Positions 1 through 9,574 of a stretch of 31,491 nt of DNA are shown here, in pieces. The first letter of the stretch is position 1; each line of letters begins with the position of its first letter. A program made the position numbers and the translations under genes. The stretch lies in NCBI RefSeq assembly GCF_003334255.1, contig NZ_QOWU01000059.1, one strand, 5' to 3'. The notes under the pieces are model-generated. The model was not told the DNA's origin. It made no database searches and saw nothing but the letters and a program-made list of their open reading frames with translations. Source of the DNA: Escherichia coli (GTDB lineage: Bacteria > Pseudomonadota > Gammaproteobacteria > Enterobacterales > Enterobacteriaceae).

Positions 1-63
1 GACATCAGTACCCGTGATGAAGGCGGGGGCGGAAAGGTCGTGGTTATCGGGCGGCAGGGGTAA
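1..63 (+). CDS. 3' end of a phage tail assembly protein I-like gene (partial; start lies upstream of the window)
   Basis: Frame 1 runs open from base 1 to a TAA at 61-63 (…DISTRDEGGGGKVVVIGRQG*). It sits directly upstream of the J homolog, as gene I does in lambda. Identification rests on position and on the Gly-rich C-terminus only. Confidence 0.4.
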   Translation, partial: DISTRDEGGGGKVVVIGRQG

Positions 64-406
64 AAAGAATAAAAAAATCCCGCAGTGATCGCGGACAGGA
101 ACTGCGGGAGAGTTACGAAGATTAAGTGTAAGGAATTATTCTTATATCACGACAAAAAAATTAACGCAGAGAAATTATACGCGCCACAGTCAGTTTGTGA
201 AAATGTGAAGATATTCAGAATTTTTATGCCATTACCGGTTTTAACCAACAGGATTATCGGTGGGCATGAAAGAAAACCCCGGTATCTGCTGATACCGGGG
301 TTTCTCTTTAGCATGGCAGAAATGTGTTTCATGCTTTTCGGGCGAAGGATATCCGACTTCTGTACGGAATGGCAAGTGGCGGTTAATTTATTCAGGGGAA
401 GGCTGT

Positions 407-3400
407 ATGGGAAAAGGTGGCGGTAAGGCACACACGCCTCGTGAGGCGAAGGATAATCTCAAATCCACGCAGATGATGAGCGTGATTGATGCGATTGGTG
501 AGGGACCGATAGAAGGTCCGGTGAAGGGACTGCAGAGTATCCTGGTGAACAAAACCCCGCTGACGGACACGGACGGTAATCCCGTGATACACGGTGTGAC
601 GGCGGTCTGGCGCGCCGGGGAGCAGGAGCAGACACCACCGGAAGGCTTTGAGTCCTCCGGTGCTGAAACCGGACTGGGCGTGGAAGTGACGAAGGCAAAA
701 CCGGTGACGCGCACCATTACGTCCGCGAACATTGACCGCCTGCGGGTTACCTTCGGGGTGCAGTCACTGGTGCAGACCACGTCAAAGGGTGACCGAAACC
801 CGACATCCGTCCGCCTGCTGATTCAGTTACAGCGTAACGGTAACTGGGTGACAGAAAAGGATGTCACCATTAACGGCAAGACCACCTCGCAGTTTCTGGC
901 GTCGGTGATTCTGGATAATCTGCCTCCCCGTCCTTTTAACATCCGGATGGTCCGGGAGACAGCGGACAGCACCACGGACCAGCTGCAGAATAAGACGCTG
1001 TGGTCGTCATACACCGAAATCATCGATGTGAAACAGTGCTACCCGAACACGGCCATTGTGGGGCTGCAGGTGGATGCGGAGCAGTTCGGCGGCCAGCAGA
1101 TGACGGTGAACTACCATATCCGCGGTCGCATCATCCAGGTGCCGTCAAACTATGACCCGGAAAAACGCACGTACAGTGGTATCTGGGACGGCAGTCTGAA
1201 ACCGGCATACAGCAACAACCCGGCCTGGTGCCTGTGGGACATGCTGACTCACCCGCGCTACGGCATGGGAAAACGTCTGGGGGCGGCGGATGTGGACAAG
1301 TGGGCGCTGTATGCCATCGGGCAGTACTGCGACCAGACGGTCCCGGATGGTTTCGGGGGGACCGAGCCGCGGATGACCTTTAATGCGTACCTGGCACAAC
1401 AGCGTAAGGCGTGGGACGTTCTCAGTGATTTCTGCTCTGCGATGCGCTGTATGCCGGTATGGAACGGTCAGACGCTGACGTTCGTTCAGGACCGCCCGTC
1501 GGATGTGGTGTGGCCGTACACCAGCAGCGATGTGGTGGTGGATGATAACGGCGTGGGGTTCCGCTACAGCTTCAGTGCCCTGAAGGACCGGCACACGGCG
1601 GTGGAGGTGAATTACACCGACCCGCAGAACGGCTGGCAGACCTCCACGGAACTGGTGGAAGACCCGGAAGCCATACTGCGCTACGGACGCAACCTGCTGA
1701 AGATGGACGCGTTCGGCTGTACCAGCCGCGGTCAGGCCCACCGTGCCGGGCTGTGGGTGATAAAGACCGAACTGCTGGAAACGCAGACGGTGGATTTCAC
1801 GCTCGGGTCACAGGGGCTGCGTCACACACCCGGTGACATCATTGAAATCTGTGATAACGACTATGCCGGGACCATGACCGGCGGACGTGTCCTGTCCATC
1901 GATGCCGCCAGCCGTACCCTGACGCTGGACCGGGAGGTGACACTGCCGGAGACCGGCACGGCCACTGTTAATCTGATTAACGGCAGCGGTAAGCCGGCGA
2001 GCGTGGCCATCACCGCACACCCCGCGCCTGACCGGATACAGGTCAGCACCCTGCCGGATGGTGTGGAGACATACGGTGTGTGGGGACTCTCCCTGCCGTC
2101 ACTGCGTCGTCGCCTGTTCCGCTGTGTCTCCATCCGGGAAAACACGGACGGCACCTTTGCCATCACGGCGGTGCAGCACGTACCTGAAAAAGAAGCCATC
2201 GTGGATAACGGGGCCCGCTTTGAGCCGCAGTCAGGCACCCTGAACAGCGTTATCCCACCGGCAGTGCAGCACCTGACGGTGGAGGTGAGTGCAGCTGACG
2301 GTCAGTATCTGGCACAGGCGAAATGGGACACGCCGCGGGTGGTGAAGGGTGTGCGCTTCAGTCTGCGTCTGACCAGCGGAAGCGGAGAAGACAGCCGTCT
2401 GGTGAGCACCGCCAGCACCGCAGACACGGAGCACCGTTTCAGCGGCCTGCCACTGGGGGAATACACCCTGACGGTCAGGGCGATTAACAGTTATGGCCAG
2501 CAGGGCGAACCGGCCACCACCACGTTCAGGATTAACGCACCTGCAAAACCCGCCACCATTGAGCTGACGCCGGGGTATTTTCAGATAACGGCGGTCCCGC
2601 GTCTTGCGGTGTATGACCCGACGGTACAGTTTGAATTCTGGTTCTCAGAAAAACGCATCACGAACACAGCACAGGTGGAAAAATCTGCCCGTTATCTGGG
2701 GACCGGCAGTCAGTGGACTGTCCATGGGAGCCGGATTAAGCCGGGGACGGATTTCTGGTTTTACGTGCGAAGCGTCAACCTGGTGGGAAAATCTGCTTTT
2801 GTGGAAGCCAGCGGGCAGCCCAGCAATGATGGTGAAGGGTATCTGGAAATTTTCCGGGGGCTGATAGATGAGACGCTTCTGGGCCAGGCACTGAAAGAGC
2901 GCATTGATGCTTCAGCGCTGCGTACGGAGGTCACGCAACTGGAAGAAGACATCCGTCAGCGGATGGACACGGATATCGCAGAAGTGACCCGGAAAATCGG
3001 GAAGGCGGAAAACAGCCTCACGCAGCTGGTTGCGAAAAAGAATGAGGACCAGACACTGGCCATCGCGCAGGTGAGCCAGAAAGTGGACCGGGTGAGCAGT
3101 GAAATCTCACAGACTGTCAGCCAGGGGCAGTCAGAAAACGCCCGACAGATAGCACAGGTCCGCCAGTACGTGGATAAAAAAGGGAGTGAAATTACCTCGA
3201 CCACGGATAAAAAGCTGGGTGACCAGGCCGTGACCATACAGCAAATCCAGCGGGTTCAGTCAGACACGCGCAATGAGCTGAATGCCATGTATATGCTGAA
3301 GGTGCAGAAAACAAAAAACGGTATTCCCTATGTGGCCGGGATTGGCGCGGGGATTGAGGATGTTGATGGTCAGACGCTGAGCAGTATTCTGCTGCAGGCG

Positions 3401-4099
3401 GACCGTATCGCGATGATTACCCCGGAGAACGGCAACACCACGCCGCTGTTTGTGGCGCAGGGGAATCAGCTGTTCATGAACGACGTGTTCCTGAAGCGAC
3501 TGTTTGCGGTGAGCATCACGTCATCCGGCAATCCTCCTACGTTTTCCCTGACGCCGGATGGCAGGCTGACAGCCCGCAATGCGGATATCAGTGGAGCCAT
3601 CACGGCGAATACCGGCACGCTCAATAATGTCACCATTAACGAGAACTGTGTCATCAGAGGGAAACTGTCTGCAAACCAGATTGAAGGCGATCTCGTTAAA
3701 ACAGTGGGTAAGGCTTTCCCCCGTGACTCCCGTGCACCGGAGCGTTGGCCATCAGGAACCATTACCGTCAGGGTTTATGACGATCAGCCGTTTAACCGGC
3801 AGATTGTTATTCCGGCGGTGGCTTTCAGCGGTGCCAGACATGAGCGGGAGAACAGCGATACTTATTCGTCATGCCGCCTGATAGTACGGAAAAACGGTGC
3901 TGAAATTTATAACCGTACCGCGCTGGATAATACGCTGATTTACAGTGGTGTTATTGATATGCCTGCTGGTCGCGGCCACATGACGCTGGAGTTTTCTGTA
4001 TCAGCATGGTGGGTAAATGGCTGGTATCCCACAGCAAGTATCAGCGATTTGCTGGTTGTTGTGATGAAGAAAGCCACTGCAGGCATCACGATTAGCTGA
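407..4099 (+). CDS. J: Phage host specificity protein J (tail tip / central tail fiber), 1230 aa
   Basis: N-terminus [22 protein letters not shown]… and long collinear stretches (…[22 protein letters not shown]…, …[24 protein letters not shown]…, …[18 protein letters not shown]…) match lambda gpJ as I recall it. AGGGGAAGG Shine-Dalgarno lies ahead of the ATG at 407. About 100 aa longer than lambda J, with extra coiled-coil-like sequence near aa 820-950. Confidence 0.93.
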
Positions 4100-4118
4100 A
4101 TTTTATAACCCCAATACG

Positions 4119-4142
4119 GGCGCCAGAAATGGCGCCTTTTTT
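4119..4142 (+). terminator. Intrinsic terminator-like hairpin after J (GGCGCC-agaaat-GGCGCC followed by TTTTTT)
   Basis: Read directly: 6-bp GC stem 4119-4124 / 4131-4136, 6-nt loop, then a T6 run at 4137-4142. Confidence 0.55.
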
Positions 4143-4166
4143 ATTGCAGAAAAGCGAGAGGTAATT

Positions 4167-4766
4167 ATGCGTAAAGTTTGTGCAGCCATTTTGTCCGCAG
4201 CCATCTGTCTGTCCGTATCCGGTGCGCCTGCATGGGCGTCTGAACATCAGTCCACACTGAGCGCGGGGTATCTTCATGCCCGTACGAACGCTCCCGGCAG
4301 CGATAATCTGAACGGGATTAACGTGAAATACCGTTATGAGTTTACGGACGCGCTGGGGCTGATTACGTCCTTCAGTTATGCCAATGCTGAGGATGAGCAA
4401 AAAACGCACTACAGCGATACCCGCTGGCATGAAGATTCCGTGCGTAACCGCTGGTTCAGCGTGATGGCGGGGCCGTCTGTACGCGTGAATGAATGGTTCA
4501 GCGCGTATGCGATGGTGGGTGTGGCTTACAGCCGTGTGTCGACTTTCTCCGGGGATTATCTCCGCGTAACTGACAACAAGGGGAAAACGCACGATGTGCT
4601 GACCGGAAGTGATGACGGTCGCCACAGCAACACGTCTCTGGCGTGGGGGGCTGGCGTGCAGTTTAACCCGACCGAATCCGTAACCATTGACCTTGCTTAT
4701 GAAGGTTCCGGTAGTGGCGACTGGCGAACGGATGCATTTATTGTTGGTATCGGATACCGTTTCTGA
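4167..4766 (+). CDS. lom: Lom/Ail-family outer membrane beta-barrel protein (lambda lom homolog), 199 aa
   Basis: Signal peptide MRKVCAAILSAAICLSVSGAPAWA, C-terminal aromatic residue (…GIGYRF), GAGAGG Shine-Dalgarno, and the J-lom-stf order typical of lambdoid phages. Sequence resembles lambda Lom. Confidence 0.88.
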   Translation: MRKVCAAILSAAICLSVSGAPAWASEHQSTLSAGYLHARTNAPGSDNLNGINVKYRYEFTDALGLITSFSYANAEDEQKTHYSDTRWHEDSVRNRWFSVMAGPSVRVNEWFSAYAMVGVAYSRVSTFSGDYLRVTDNKGKTHDVLTGSDDGRHSNTSLAWGAGVQFNPTESVTIDLAYEGSGSGDWRTDAFIVGIGYRF

Positions 4767-4870
4767 CAACAGACGCCGATTTATCTTCTGTAAATATTGT
4801 TATGATACGCAGGTTCATCCACCTTATGGGGTGAACTGCGTTTGAGGAAACGTAAAGTTACACTGTCCTG

Positions 4871-4903
4871 AAGCCCGTGGCGTCACTGCTGCGGGCTTTT
4901 TTT
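4871..4903 (+). terminator. Intrinsic terminator-like hairpin between lom and stf
   Basis: aAGCCCG…CGGGCTt stem (4871-4877 / 4892-4898) with further wobble pairs inward, followed by T7 at 4897-4903. Confidence 0.55.
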
Positions 4904-4917
4904 ATTGGTGGAAAAGT

Positions 4918-7900
4918 ATGACAGTAAAAATTTCTGGCGTGCTTAAAGATGGCACAGGAAAACCAGTACAGAACTGCACCATTGTGCTGAAGGCCAGACG
5001 AACCAGCAGCACGGTGGTGGTGAACACGGTGGCCTCTGAAAATCCGGATGAAGCCGGACGTTACAGCATGGATGTTGAGCATGGCCAGTACAGCGTCACC
5101 CTGCTGGTTGAAGGTTTTCCGCCTTCACATGCCGGGACCATTACCGTCTATGAAGGTTCCAGACCAGGTACGCTGAATGATTTTCTCGGTGCCATGACGG
5201 AGGATGATGTCCGACCGGAGGCACTGCGCCGCTTTGAGCAGATGGTGGAAGAGGTGTCACGTAACGCCTCCGCGGTTGCACAGAATACGGCAGCCGCGAA
5301 AAAATCAGCCAGCGATGCCAGTGCATCAGCCAGCGAGGCGGCAACTCATGCAACCGATGCTGCAGCCTCAGCACGTGCCGCCAGCACGTCAGCCGGACAG
5401 GCCGCGTCGTCGGCTCAGTCAGCGTCTTCCAGCGCAGGAACGGCATCGACAAAGGCCCGTGAAGCAGCAAAAAGTGCTGCTGCTGCAGAGTCATCAAAAA
5501 GCGCGGCAGCTACCAGCGCCAGTGCCGCGAAAACGTCAGAAACGAATGCCGCAGCATCACAAAAATCGGCAGCCACTTCTGCATCCACAGCGACCACGAA
5601 GGCGTCAGAAGCTGCCACCTCGGCACGGGGTGCGGCGGCCTCAAAAGAGGCAGCGAAATCTTCAGAAACGAATGCATCATCAAGTGCCAGTAGTGCAGCT
5701 TCCTCGGCAACGGCGGCAGGAAATTCCGCGAAGGCGGCAAAAACGTCCGAGACGAACGCTAAGTCTTCTGAAACAGCAGCGGGACAGAGCGCCTCAGCTG
5801 CGGCAGGTTCAAAAACAGCGGCTGCATTATCTGCCAGTGCCGCGTCAACAAGTGCCGGGCAGGCCTCAGCCAGTGCCACCGCCGCCGGAAAATCGGCAGA
5901 AAGCGCCGCATCATCCGCTTCAACAGCCACAACGAAAGCTGGCAAAGCCACTGAGCAAGCCACTGCAGCAGCGAGGTCTGCTTCTGCAGCAAAAACCTCT
6001 GAAACAAATGCAAAGACTTCAGCAGACAATGCTGCTTCCTCTAAGGCGGCAGCCGCATCGTCAGCCAGTTCAGCGGCGTCATCGGCATCATCTGCGTCTG
6101 CTTCAAAAGATGAGGCGACCAGACAAGCGTCAGCAGCGAAAGGTAGTGCCACGACAGCAACAACGAAAGCATCAGAGGCGGCAGGCAGTGCGACGGCTGC
6201 ATCTCAGAGCAAAGTTGCTGCTGAATCCGCGGCAACGCGCGCCGAGACAGCAGCAAAACGGGCAGAGGATATTGCATCCGCCGTGGCGCTGGAGGATGCG
6301 AGCACGACGAAAAAGGGGATAGTACAGCTCAGCAGTGCAACAAACAGCACCAGTGAAAAGCTGGCGGCAACGCCAAAGGCAGTTAAAACTGTTAAAGATA
6401 GTTCAGTTCAAAAAACTGGCGACACAATGGGAGGGCAGTTAAAAATCAGCACGATAAATGCTCTTCGAATATTCAACCAAGCCTTTGGCCTTATTTTTAG
6501 GCGTTCCGAAGATCATCTTCATCTTATTCCGACTAATGAAGGGGAGGGGGAAAATGGAGACATCGGTTCATTAAGACCATTCTCTATAAACTTAAGATCA
6601 GGGTTGGTGTCCATCGGTAATGGACTAAAAGTTGGTGGTAGTGTTACTGGTAATTTGACCGGAAACGCAGATACTGCGACCAAGATCAAGACAGCACGTA
6701 AGATTGGGGGCGTGGCATTTGATGGATCGGCAGATATCAACTTGCCTGGAGTCAACGCTACCGGTAATCAAAACACTACAGGTAATGCTGCGACCGCCAC
6801 GAAACTTCAGGCAGCCAGAACGATTAACGGTGTGTCATTTGATGGTAGTGCAAATATCACATTGACCCCTTCAAATATTGGGGCATTGGCATTAACTGGA
6901 GGGACTCTTTCAGGTGGTTTAACTGCTGCTGGTGAGGTTATTTCAAGGTCAGCAAATGGTCTGCGTATTGCCTATGGCAACTATGGATTCTTTATCCGAA
7001 ATGATGGATCAAACACATATTTTATGTTGACAGATTCGGGTAACAGTCTTGGTACGCACAATAGCTTAAGGCCGTTTATAATTAGTAACCATACTGGCAA
7101 TGTTACAATTGCAACTAAATTAAACGCGAGTGGTGGTATCACTGGATCTTTATCGGGTAATGCAAGCACAGCAACCAAATTGCAAACTGCAAGGACAATT
7201 AACGGCGTAAAATTTGACGGCTCGGCAAATATTGAAGCGTTTCCGCCAGGTGTTCCGCTGCCGTGGCCATCAGATACACCACCTGCAGGTTATGCGATCA
7301 TGCAGGGGCAGACGTTTGATAAGGCAGCATATCCGAAACTGGCTATTGCCTATCCTTCAGGTGTTATTCCAGATATGCGCGGCTGGACAATCAAGGGCAA
7401 ACCCGCCAGTGGCCGGGCCGTATTGTCTCAGGAACAGGACGGCATAAAATCGCACACCCACAGCGCCAGCGCATCCAGTACGGATTTGGGGACGAAAACC
7501 ACATCGTCGTTTGATTACGGCACTAAATCCACGAATAACACCGGGGCGCATACGCACAGTCTGAGTGGCTCTACGGGGTCTGCCGGTGTTCATACTCATG
7601 GTAATGGTATTCGTTGGCCAGGAGGCGGCGGTTCTGCGTTAGCATTTTATGATGGCGGTGGGTTCACTTATGTCCAGAATTCACAGTATCAAGTAAGCCC
7701 GGAGACTTCTTCCTATAGATCGTATTATCAACGTATTCAGACACAGTCAGCAGGTGCTCATACCCACTCGCTGTCTGGTACTGCAGCAAGTTCTGGCGCA
7801 CATGCACATACTGTAGGTATTGGTGCGCATACGCACTCCGTTGCGATTGGTTCACATGGACACACCATCACCGTTAACGCTGCGGGTAACGCGGAAAACA

Positions 7901-7944
7901 CCGTCAAAAACATCGCATTTAACTATATTGTGAGGCTTGCATAA
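4918..7944 (+). CDS. stf: Side tail fiber protein (Stf-like), 1008 aa, mosaic
   Basis: N-terminus [22 protein letters not shown]… and C-terminus …[31 protein letters not shown] match lambda Stf as recalled. Contains an Ala/Ser/Thr-rich low-complexity segment, three copies of a G-N-x-x-TATK(L/I)-x-(T/A)AR-x-I-(N/G)GV-x-FDGSA(N/D)I phage tail-fiber repeat (about nt 6650-7240), and His-rich HTHS/HAHT repeats near the C-terminus. Confidence 0.9.
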
Positions 7945-8528
7945 TGGCATTCAGAATGAGTGAACAAGCACGGACCATAAAAATTTATAATCTGCTGGCC
8001 GGAACTAATGAATTTATTGGTGAAGGTGACGCATATATTCCGCCTCATACAGGTCTGCCAGCAAACAGTACCGATATTGCACCACCAGATATTCCTGCTG
8101 GCTTTGTGGCTGTTTTCAACAGTGATGAGGCATCGTGGCATCTCGTTGAAGACCATCGGGGGAAAACGGTTTATGACGTAGCGTCAGGGGACGAGTTATT
8201 TATTTCTGAACTCGGTCCGTTACCGGAAAATGTTACCTGGTTATCGCCGGAAGGGGAGTTTCAGAAGTGGAACGGCACAGCCTGGGTGAAGGATACGGAA
8301 GCAGAAAAACTGTTCCGGATCCGGGAGGCGGAAGAAACAAAAAACAACCTGATGCAGGTAGCCAGTGAGCATATTGCGCCGCTTCAGGATGCTGCAGATC
8401 TGGAAATTGCAACGGAGAAAGAAACCTCATTGCTGGAAGCCTGGAAAAAGTATCGGGTGTTGCTGAACCGTGTTGATACATCAACTGCACCTGATATTGA
8501 GTGGCCTACGAACCCTGTCAGGGAGTAA
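7944..8528 (+). CDS. tfa: Tail fiber assembly protein (Tfa), 194 aa
   Basis: [34 protein letters not shown]… is near-identical to lambda Tfa as recalled. The start overlaps the stf stop in a TAATG arrangement (translational coupling). Confidence 0.92.
8367..8528 (+). repeat. Direct repeat copy A (3' end of tfa), ~160 bp
   Basis: Nucleotide alignment by eye: gagcatattgcgccgcttcaggatgctgcagatctggaaattgcaacgg… versus gagtatattgcgccactgcaggatgctgtagatctggaaatcgcaacgg… at 9416; roughly 85-90% identity, same orientation. Confidence 0.75.
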
Positions 8529-8542
8529 TCATTGGGATTATG

Positions 8543-8590
8543 CCGCAGCACGTCTTAAGCAAGAACGTGCTGCGGTTGGATGCTATTTTT
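8543..8590. terminator. Hairpin plus T-run between convergent tfa (+) and methyltransferase (-); likely bidirectional terminator
   Basis: Perfect 11-bp stem CCGCAGCACGT (8543-8553) / ACGTGCTGCGG (8565-8575), 11-nt loop, then …tgctatttttt to 8590. Confidence 0.5.
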
Positions 8591-9251
8591 TCCCTGAAGC
8601 GGAAAACATTACTACAGTACCTTGAACCTTGGTTTTAACATTCTCGAAATGCTCTGAGAGTATATGTGTTAAGCCTTCTTCGGAATCTTTTGTGTTTGAA
8701 AAGATGCCTTTCTGATTGTAAATGCGCATCAGTTTTTGACCGAAGCTATTGTGCACAACTCCATCGCCAAGAATTGTGGCTCCGTATAGAGTTCCATCGT
8801 CAGTTAAGGCCTGCGCCGCATTGCGTATTACACAGCTTTTTGTAGATATATTTCCAGGCAGGCAGTGAAGAAGGTAAAACATGGAAATGGAATCAAATTG
8901 ACCATGTAACGCCGCGGGATAAGGTTCAAAAACATCATGGCTAATTTTATGTTTAATTTTTGATTCCCCAGCCCTTGTAGATGCCGCGTTCAGGCTAGCT
9001 TCGTTCAAATCCATTAAAGATATCAGACTACTCTCAGGTACGTGAGTAAGGTAAAACCCAGTTCCAACACCAATATCCAGATGGTTGTTACCTACATGTT
9101 CCAGAAAGTGTGGAAGAAGGTGTTCCTTTGTAGGACATCCCCATGCAAGCCGATTTGATACTCCCAAAACCCACCAGTCATAAAGCTTTAGGGTAAGTGG
9201 TGTGTAAATTTTAGCCCCATCATCTGTGTTTTTTTTCATTGATTTCACCAT
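8583..9251 (-). CDS. Class I SAM-dependent methyltransferase (prophage cargo gene), 222 aa from the first ATG
   Basis: Glycine-rich SAM-binding motif I (…HLDIGVGTGFYL…) followed by an acidic residue at the end of the next beta-strand (…ISLMDLNE…). Opposite strand to the tail genes and visibly more AT-rich than its flanks. The start is ambiguous: ATG at 9249-9251 (MVKS…) or ATG at 9236-9238 (MKKNT…, preceded by GGTGA at SD spacing). Confidence 0.75.
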   Translation of the reverse strand: MVKSMKKNTDDGAKIYTPLTLKLYDWWVLGVSNRLAWGCPTKEHLLPHFLEHVGNNHLDIGVGTGFYLTHVPESSLISLMDLNEASLNAASTRAGESKIKHKISHDVFEPYPAALHGQFDSISMFYLLHCLPGNISTKSCVIRNAAQALTDDGTLYGATILGDGVVHNSFGQKLMRIYNQKGIFSNTKDSEEGLTHILSEHFENVKTKVQGTVVMFSASGKK

Positions 9252-9307: not shown

Positions 9308-9574
9308 ATGCTGCCGCAGCATAGCGATATTGAAATAGCCTGGTATGCTTCGATACAGCAGGAGCCGAATGACTGGAAGACCGTCACCACACAGTTCCAC
9401 ATCCAGGAATTCAGTGAGTATATTGCGCCACTGCAGGATGCTGTAGATCTGGAAATCGCAACGGCGGAAGAAAGATCGTTGCTGGAGGCATGGAATAAAT
9501 ATCGGGTATTGTTGAATCGTGTTGATACATCAACTGCACCTGATATTGAGTGGCCGACTTCACCTGCAGAGTAA
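9308..9574 (+). pseudogene. Partial second copy of tfa (C-terminal domain only, 88-aa ORF)
   Basis: C-terminal ~50 aa ([47 protein letters not shown]…) parallel the C-terminus of the Tfa at 7944-8528. The N-terminal part has no Tfa N-domain, so it is probably a remnant. Confidence 0.6.
9416..9574 (+). repeat. Direct repeat copy B (3' end of the tfa fragment)
   Basis: See copy A. The two copies bracket the methyltransferase gene. Confidence 0.75.

Follow-up and report, generated by a model that had tools for sequence, protein, structure and literature searches.

The side tail fibre gene and its surroundings

The window, a 31,491-nucleotide stretch of Escherichia coli DNA, contains a lambdoid prophage that carries an intact side tail fibre gene, stf. 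The open reading frame (4918..7944, + strand), also annotated in RefSeq, encodes 1008 amino acids, lies between J/lom and tfa, and specifies a product equal to WP_000216487.1 of E. coli ATCC 25922. It is followed by tfa (7944..8528, +), an open reading frame annotated in RefSeq as 'tail fiber assembly protein' and encoding the tail fibre assembly chaperone. The gene order J-lom-stf-tfa of the lambdoid tail module was recovered from the open reading frames, from the RefSeq annotation of an identical locus and from the lambda reference. The gene has 100% identical counterparts in ATCC 25922 and in related genomes; among 5426 complete E. coli genomes, 423 match at least 80% of its length.

An NCBIfam search with the whole Stf protein returned no family match. 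Pfam identified the N-terminal tail-attachment domain (phage_tail_N, PF08400, E 5.6e-70) at residues 1-134 (5319 being its last nucleotide; 4918..5319, +). The adjoining Ala/Ser-rich proximal rod (5320..6300, +; GC2 0.81) is homologous to the proximal coiled coil in the lambda Stf domain map; within it, 306 nt (5826-6130) appeared as a blastn gap against lambda and were matched contiguously in phages 204576 and mEp332. At the opposite end of the protein, the receptor-binding tip (residues 773-1008; 7234..7941, +) comprises a collar (Pfam Collar, 778-825), GxHxH needle repeats detected by Pfam as Phage_fiber repeats, and a head patch. The tip aligned with the T4 gp37 tip over the full length of PDB 2xgf (E 1.3e-81) and was 65% identical to the C-terminus of lambda Stf. 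Its distal head patch was divergent (about 7594-7764), in agreement with a gap in the DNA alignment to lambda and mEp332 at about 7570-7765. Judged from its PF08400 domain, the gene order and the gp37-like tip, the protein is classed as a lambda-type Stf; the missing hinge and distal coiled coil of lambda, described below, is an allelic difference inside the Stf family and does not exclude the protein from it.

Domains, motif copies and composition of the AT-rich segment

Between the rod and the tip lies a segment that a sequence-only reading had described as a low-GC mosaic insert with three tandem tail-fibre repeats. It is entered through a conserved box at residues 462-498 (6301..6411, +), ending in …ATPKAVK, which was delineated by DNA alignment and by Pfam Phage_fiber_2 (PF03406); this family was missed in the scan of full-length Stf and was picked up on fragment P0004 (E 3.9e-17), whose sequence across the box is the same. 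Two beta-prism-type knob domains follow. The first, D1 (residues 501-581; 6418..6660, +), was recognized by its similarity to the second and by matches to the tail fibre families phrog_454 and phrog_6859. The second, D2 (residues 667-746; 6916..7155, +), was assigned from Pfam and PDB homology: together with motif copy 2 it matched the Gp34_trimer family (PF21446) at residues 620-722 with E 1.8e-25, whereas D1 alone gave only a weak match at residues 468-557 (E 0.22). D1 and D2 were 32% identical over 81 residues (E 6.6e-11). Among solved structures, D2 matched the S fibre of Mu (5yvq, E 2.2e-32) and T4 gp34 (4uxe, 5nxf and 9x3r, E about 1e-16), the alignment spanning gp34 residues 997-1121.

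We also modelled residues 455-830 as a monomer with AlphaFold2. The model was of low confidence (mean pLDDT 60, pTM 0.36; 44-sequence alignment), and the input alignment of 1588 columns was ragged because the homologues differ in module order. Foldseek with this poor model returned 5yvq and 4uxg as top matches at a TM of only about 0.2. The Foldseek matches are consistent with the assigned fold but do not prove it. As the monomer model is poor, we assigned the fold from homologous sequences; an intertwined trimeric beta-prism and triple beta-helix is the predicted fold of the segment.

The three repeats are real but are not in tandem. The 26-residue motif, with the consensus GNAxTATKLxxARxIxGVxFDGSxxI, occurs at residues 582-607 (copy 1; 6661..6738, +), 622-647 (copy 2; 6781..6858, +) and 747-772 (copy 3; 7156..7233, +, in the downstream joint region); copy 2 starts 40 residues after copy 1, and copy 3 starts 125 residues past the start of copy 2, behind a beta-prism domain. 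A custom profile, for which we took 25 occurrences of the motif from other proteins, none more than 80% identical to the Stf copies, scored the three at 48.8, 56.0 and 56.5 bits, against 8.8 bits for the best of 1000 shuffled controls, and pairwise BLASTP comparison of the copies gave E values of 5e-13 to 6e-16, far above chance. In the Pfam scan that had been proposed for these repeats, no dedicated repeat family covers the motif copies, PF03406 matching the upstream GIVQLSS…ATPKAVK box (residues 462-498) and PF03335 (Phage_fiber) the GxHxH repeats of the tip, so that both were rejected as the motif family. When the motif region was compared by itself with the PDB, nothing better emerged than a weak match to the phage L protein Dec (E 0.14), and a literature search on the motif string returned only noise. 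Across fibres, the motif occurs one to five times each with a modal spacing of 40 residues. At the nucleotide level, the copies share 51-53 of 78 positions (65-68% identity) with saturated silent sites, and TRF found no tandem repeat in 6300-7250. Because of this divergence and the silence of TRF, recent tandem duplication in situ is ruled out; the copies are old, and any duplication long predates the present arrangement of the gene.

The low GC content also proved genuine. No stretch of the tail region has a lower GC content than positions 6387-7236 (approximately; GC 0.43), and the 831-nt window at 6400-7230 falls in the bottom 0.8% of such windows across positions 1-8528, the minimum starting at 6381. 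We checked whether composition is uniform across stf, which would have counted against the sequence-only reading, and it is not: GC was 0.41-0.47 over about 6300-7250, compared with 0.56-0.61 upstream and 0.54 downstream. Nevertheless, much of the contrast with the rod reflects the proteins themselves, since the GC expected from amino-acid composition was 0.634 for the Ala-rich rod and 0.535 for the AT-rich segment, accounting for about 0.10 of the 0.16 difference (about 60%). At the codon level, the segment still had the largest GC deficit (-0.10, versus -0.01 to -0.05 elsewhere), and its GC3 of 0.348 differed from that of the remainder of stf (chi-square p = 0.002). Low GC together with low GC3 suggests a past in lower-GC phage genomes.

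Breakpoints and the probable role as a shaft cassette

Alignment to lambda stf and to other lambdoid fibre genes, the check proposed with the initial reading, mapped the breakpoints sharply. The DNA resembles that of lambda, phage 204576 and mEp332 up to 6386/6387, and the similarity restarts at 7237 for lambda and at 7261 for phage 204576 and mEp332; between these points, each of the three has its own different sequence. In the junction alignments, four sequences part after 6386 and five rejoin at …CCGTGGCCATCAGAT (PWPSD), placing the upstream joint at the conserved box ATPKAVK and the downstream joint at the conserved box FPxGxPxPWPSD. Similarity to the myophage vB_EcoM-613R2 begins at about 7151. 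These data bear out that the side tail fibre has undergone domain shuffling and that the segment is mosaic, but as a replacement and not as an insertion. Residues of about 394-528 in lambda Stf, read from the sequence, are the hinge and distal coiled coil, in agreement with a published map (hinge 394-422, distal coiled coil 423-525; PMC12617516), and neither blastn nor tblastn found similarity between our residues 499-764 and lambda Stf. A simple insertion is excluded because lambda's own 124 residues are absent; 265 residues stand here in their place, a net gain of about 141. The protein is indeed 234 residues longer than lambda Stf, close to the roughly 230 that had been ascribed to this segment, but the segment contributes only about 60% of them (141), a further 102-105 or so arising in the rod (5826-6130) and the tip being about 11 residues shorter. 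The natural joints coincide with R393 and S528, the points at which working engineered chimeras of lambda Stf were fused (Brodel et al. 2024, PMC11338833).

The segment and the tip also assort independently. P0123 carries the same rod and segment (95% identity) with a different N-terminus and a different distal end, diverging right after motif copy 3, while phage 204576 and vB_EcoM-613R2 combine the same tip with unrelated shafts. In the population, the segment occurs in 423 genomes, compared with 3514 of 5426 for the upstream box segment (6131-6400), and its family comprises 6277 cluster representatives. The distal domains of gp34 have been described as mobile pseudo-domains (PMC12143355). 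A near-identical DNA donor was not found among 50,697 phage records, the best matches reaching about 71-75% (Cyrano, CMS-2020a, P1 and Mu fibres).

We conclude, with a rough probability of 0.85, that this lambda-type stf gene carries, at approximately 6387-7236, a shaft cassette that can be exchanged. What was observed directly is where the cassette begins and ends, what it is homologous to, how its repeats are arranged, how it is distributed in the population and that it assorts independently of the tip; to these we add a predicted trimeric fold, a putative recombination mechanism and a putative functional role. The cassette would consist of D1 with a motif, D2 with a motif and one extra motif between the two units, occupying the place of the lambda hinge and distal coiled coil (about 394-528). 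It probably entered the gene through recombination at two short boxes that are conserved among many unrelated fibres, namely the PF03406 box ending in …ATPKAVK and, downstream, the motif plus the beginning of the collar (FPxGxPxPWPSD). Three chains are predicted to intertwine, the motifs forming a narrow triple beta-helix that the two beta-prism knobs interrupt, and the resulting stable trimeric spacer would link the proximal coiled-coil rod to the gp37-like tip (residues 773-1008), which may fold together with Tfa. Fibre length and stiffness would be set by the cassette.

Because the cassette occurs with other tips, it most likely acts as a trimerising shaft spacer and not as a determinant of host range. 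Receptor specificity probably resides in the gp37-like tip downstream; a direct effect of the AT-rich segment on host range, as had been proposed, is unlikely given that tip (E 1e-81) and the independent assortment of the two. The part to examine for host range is accordingly the tip patch at about 7594-7764 rather than the AT-rich segment. The cassette may plausibly affect how long or how stiff the fibre is or the geometry of its hinge, and through these the kinetics of adsorption.

We also considered whether the cassette is itself a receptor- or glycan-binding module whose knobs add a second specificity (e.g. for LPS, O-antigen or capsule) and thereby change host range directly. Some contribution of the knobs to binding is conceivable, as the homologous segments of the S fibre gene in Mu, P1 and P7 belong to its invertible part, which switches host range; furthermore, the Dec paper speculates that the beta-helix could bind carbohydrate (PMC6449081), and this site accommodates several alternatives, the cassette among them (423 versus 3514 genomes). 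However, the closest solved homologue besides Mu is T4 gp34, a phage-proximal half-fibre distant from the receptor (PMC5537660), the domain is 70-85% conserved across fibres with different tips, which is unexpected for a specificity determinant, and further downstream there is a complete gp37-type tip that has a hypervariable patch of its own, so that we regard such a module as improbable. We hold it similarly doubtful that the cassette is in a broader sense more than a passive spacer, either through glycan binding by the knobs, giving this widespread lambdoid prophage a two-site fibre with a glycan-binding shaft and a porin-binding tip, or through the replacement of lambda's flexible hinge by a rigid beta-structure that alters the hinge-opening step observed when Ur-lambda adsorbs; if either were true, the shaft cassette would determine adsorption behaviour independently of the tip. 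Least credible of all is that nothing was acquired horizontally, the AT-richness being a by-product of a composition rich in N, T, S, G, I and K and the motifs arising by local duplication: composition does cover the share of the GC difference given above, and D1 and D2, each with its motif, resemble a duplicated unit, but the codon-level deficit is twice that of any other segment, GC3 is shifted, the sharp breakpoints are common to several phages with unrelated cassettes between them, the cassette is joined in further proteins to different N-termini and different distal ends, and the motif copies are too diverged at the nucleotide level, with TRF silent.

Collectively, the AT-rich stretch is real yet ordinary tail-fibre mosaicism, built from a widely shared block.

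Relation to known fibres

Modular exchange among tail fibres has been known since the early 1990s; Haggard-Ljungquist in 1992 and Sandmeier in 1994 reportedly described the classical form of this mosaicism, in which segments are exchanged at short conserved boxes. The locus offers a clear-cut natural case of this long-known phenomenon, and the scientific surprise is small. We know of no experimental characterisation of the present combination of rod, cassette and tip. The two natural joints match fusion points with which lambda-based delivery particles have already been engineered. Since about 8% of the complete E. coli genomes, that of the reference strain ATCC 25922 among them, contain the cassette, chimeric fibres could draw on it as an alternative shaft that nature has already validated. 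Unlike the engineered Stf chimeras (PMC11338833), the Stf described here is a natural allele.

One of the closest systems is the Stf/Tfa pair of lambda (Ur-lambda), which shares the position in J-lom-stf-tfa, 77% amino-acid identity over residues 1-352 (attachment domain and Ala/Ser rod) and a gp37-like tip (65%). In contrast to lambda Stf, which lacks any copy of the 26-residue motif, the present protein carries a 265-residue cassette of beta-prisms and motifs in place of lambda residues of about 394-528, a rod longer by 102 residues and a different distal head patch in the tip. For the cassette, the closest solved homologue of D2 is Mu S (gp49, 5YVQ; E 2e-32, about 80% identity over 82 residues). 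Mu S, which we group with the S and H fibres of P1, P7 and P2, also has the GIVQLSSAT…ATPKAVK box in common with Stf, and the DNA is about 75% identical over about 175 nt; Mu S nevertheless differs in its single knob, in having no motif after the knob, in its other distal receptor-binding domain and in its location on an invertible gene segment. The D2 alignment also covers the triple beta-helix and beta-prism of the T4 gp34 C-terminal region (4UXE/5NXF, PF21446), although gp34 is the proximal half-fibre of a myovirus, Stf is the side fibre of a siphovirus, and gp34 lacks GNAxTATKL at the aligned positions. Finally, one motif copy is recognizable in the C-terminal spike of the phage L decoration protein Dec (6E3C), as NAETADKLSTARTI…SFDGSANVT; Dec, however, decorates the capsid and does not form a fibre, the similarity is weak (E 0.14), and the structure in that region comes from homology modelling.

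Position and joints of the AT-rich segment in stf

The window includes a lambdoid prophage's right end, with J (407-4099), lom (4167-4766), stf (4918-7944, + strand, 1008 aa) and tfa (7944-8528, +); after these come a methyltransferase gene, a remnant of tfa and the chromosomal genes potB-potA-pepT-phoQP. The encoded Stf is 100% identical to WP_000216487.1 of E. coli ATCC 25922, whose annotation goes no further than "prophage tail fiber N-terminal domain-containing protein". Among 5426 complete E. coli genomes, 423 contain stf at a coverage of 80% or more. The methyltransferase gene (8583-9251, -), of low GC content and encoding a class I SAM-dependent enzyme, lies between tfa and potB on the strand opposite to tfa, together with the C-terminal 88 aa of a second tfa (9308-9574, +; a RefSeq pseudogene). 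The pair resembles a moron insertion, or else a scar left at this end of the prophage when a fibre cassette was exchanged earlier. A full-length match to Rfam IS009 (RF02111; 8287-8485, +; 222 bits vs a gathering score of 117) falls wholly within the 3′ half of tfa, and this family of sRNA candidates seems to have been built from tfa sequences of prophages. About 340 nt (64-406) separate the tail assembly protein I homologue from J and contain no annotated gene, just short overlapping ORFs; in lambda this interval spans about 60 nt.

DNA similarity to lambda covers 4918-5825 and 6131-6386 and begins again at 7237, and similarity to phages 204576 and mEp332 covers 4918-6387 and begins again at 7261; at the protein level, similarity to lambda Stf stops at aa 499 (lambda aa 394) and restarts at aa 764 (lambda aa ~519-529). 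At the upstream joint, all four aligned sequences are conserved through …GCAACGCCAAAGGCAGTTAAA (ATPKAVK) and diverge directly after, and at the downstream joint all five aligned sequences reconverge at …CCGTGGCCATCAGAT (PWPSD). Lambda's sequence between the joints (PLDSPALTGTPTAPTA…DALNTLNELAAALGNDP…) is unrelated to the cassette and makes up two parts of the Ur-lambda fibre, its hinge (394-422) and its distal coiled coil (423-525; PMC12617516). Given that lambda carries its own unrelated hinge and coiled coil here, the segment, which the sequence-only reading had taken for an insert, is a replacement, with 265 aa standing in place of 124 (+141). Both natural joints coincide with R393 and S528, the two positions used to engineer working chimeras of lambda Stf (PMC11338833). 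The roughly 230 extra residues credited to the AT-rich segment hold as a total (234 aa over lambda Stf), but about 45% of the surplus comes from rod nt 5826-6130 (306 nt, 102-105 aa), which is absent from lambda and present in phages 204576 and mEp332; the tip is ~11 aa shorter. At this rod stretch, lambda may be the deleted form. The GCN-periodic rod region is also overlapped by a 372-aa ORF in another frame (5204-6322, +) and a 245-aa ORF (5415-6152, -), both of which look like compositional artefacts; in lambda, orf206b is annotated in the same region on the strand opposite stf.

The low GC content of the AT-rich segment was only partly as it had seemed. GC is 0.41-0.47 over ~6300-7250, and 6400-7230 (831 nt) lies in the lowest 0.8% of tail-region windows, with the tail-region minimum beginning at 6381; the visible contrast, however, arises largely because the upstream Ala/Ser-rich rod has a GC2 of 0.81. 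When expected GC was computed from amino-acid composition with local codon usage (rod 0.634, module 0.535), the observed 0.433 of the module fell 0.10 under expectation, compared with 0.01-0.05 for the remaining stf segments, and its GC3 of 0.348 differed from the rest of stf (p = 0.002; J, 0.685). Codon usage thus shows a genuine dip, though one smaller than it appears.

Knob domains and motif copies

For every Stf domain there is either a curated family or a homologue of solved structure. Pfam placed phage_tail_N at aa 1-134 (E 5.6e-70), Gp34_trimer at aa 620-722 (E 1.8e-25) and weakly at aa 468-557 (E 0.22), Collar at aa 778-825 (E 8.6e-10), and weak GxHxH Phage_fiber repeats in the tip (E 0.038 to 3.5). 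Stf aa 462-498 (6301-6411), just upstream of the module, belong to Phage_fiber_2 (PF03406; E 3.9e-17), an assignment made on P0004, a 276-aa protein fragment identical to Stf over these residues; this family was unreported in the Pfam scan of full-length Stf, probably through the HMMER bias filter acting on Ala/Ser-rich sequence. Self-comparison aligned two knobs of predicted beta-prism type, D1 (aa 501-581) and D2 (aa 667-746), at 32% identity (E 6.6e-11), which shows them to be homologous. Over 82 aa, D2 is ~80% identical to tail fibre S of phage Mu (5yvq; E 2e-32), and it aligns to residues 997-1121 of T4 gp34 (E ~1e-16), a triple beta-helix punctuated by beta-prism domains (Granell et al., PMC5537660). 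The AlphaFold2 monomer model built for aa 455-830 had low confidence (pLDDT 60) and showed a short beta-hairpin at the equivalent place in every motif copy, and Foldseek matched this model best to 5yvq and 4uxg, a result consistent with a gp34/Mu S-type fold but not decisive.

The three 26-aa motif copies were found at aa 582-607 (6661-6738), 622-647 (6781-6858) and 747-772 (7156-7233), all on the + strand. Pairwise BLASTP (E 5e-13 to 6e-16) indicates that they are clearly related to one another, and a profile HMM derived from 25 occurrences in other proteins, each at most 80% identical to the window's copies, scored them at 48.8, 56.0 and 56.5 bits against a maximum of 8.8 over 1000 protein shuffles. 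The copies are thus genuine repeats, but not tandem ones, as had been proposed: their starts lie 40 and then 125 aa apart, and Tandem Repeats Finder reported no DNA repeat at the motif region. A …GxxTGxLS/T-GNAxTATK… sequence comes after both D1 and D2, and the knob homology, each with its trailing motif, gives the module order D1-motif1-linker-motif2-D2-motif3. Between copies, 51-53 of 78 nucleotides and 18-23 of 26 residues are identical, and the copies are old and maintained by protein-level selection. Retrieved homologues carry the motif one to five times per protein, most commonly spaced 40 aa apart, or 125-134 aa across a knob; with the motif alone as query against the PDB, the sole match was the phage L Dec C-terminal spike (E 0.14, weak).

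Cassette and tip assort independently

Directly upstream of the cassette, a conserved segment (6131-6400) is present at 5221 places in 3514 of the 5426 genomes, and the cassette itself in 423, nearly always at ≥99% identity; the cassette is one of several alternatives at its position. Phage 204576 shares the tip at 94.6% identity, but its middle is different and longer, with a single motif copy; the P2-like myophage vB_EcoM-613R2 has the same motif, collar and tip from ~nt 7151 behind an unrelated N-terminus and shaft. P0123, a much longer fibre protein of 1422 aa, shares rod and whole cassette (Stf aa 208-772; 5539-7233) at 95% identity but differs in its N-terminus and continues directly after motif 3 into another 650-aa distal part, which holds additional motif copies and another D1-like knob. 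The module family comprises 6277 representatives of 50%-identity clusters (E ≤ 1e-3), and a single protein often matches along many stretches. The distal gp34 domains have been characterised as pseudo-domains that move between classes of fibre (PMC12143355). The shared joints, the unrelated middles and these other combinations of cassette and tip bear out the suggestion of domain shuffling in the fibre.

A probable shaft cassette and the receptor-binding tip

The best-supported reading of these comparisons is that the cassette is an exchangeable, trimerising shaft of beta-prism knobs and beta-helix rungs, probably swapped in by recombination at the conserved boxes, which would connect a gp37-type receptor-binding tip with the proximal rod. 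The cassette would most likely act directly on fibre length and stiffness and entail the loss or change of lambda's hinge. The main rival, that the cassette knobs themselves bind a surface structure, draws on homologous segments located where the fibre genes of Mu, P1 and P7 are invertible; we consider it improbable, and an influence of the cassette on the choice of receptor appears unlikely. The host-range change earlier attributed to the AT-rich segment is better sought in the tip, the C-terminal 236 aa of Stf, which match the T4 gp37 receptor-binding tip (2xgf) over its full length (E 1.3e-81). Within the tip lies a hypervariable patch (~7594-7764, aa ~893-948) that found no DNA match in lambda (gap 7594-7764) or mEp332 (gap 7569-7738), carries ~25 extra residues relative to T4 gp37 and also differs in vB_EcoM-613R2. 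Judged from these alignments, the tip, chiefly this patch, is the likeliest host-range determinant, and the patch the likeliest receptor-contact region of Stf.

Mosaicism of tail fibres at conserved motifs is textbook knowledge, reportedly going back to Haggard-Ljungquist in 1992, Sandmeier in 1994, and Hendrix and Duda in 1992. The T4 gp37 tip is a close homologue, from which the window's Stf differs in its longer and divergent distal patch. This stf allele is uncharacterised and new; the kind of system to which it belongs is well known.
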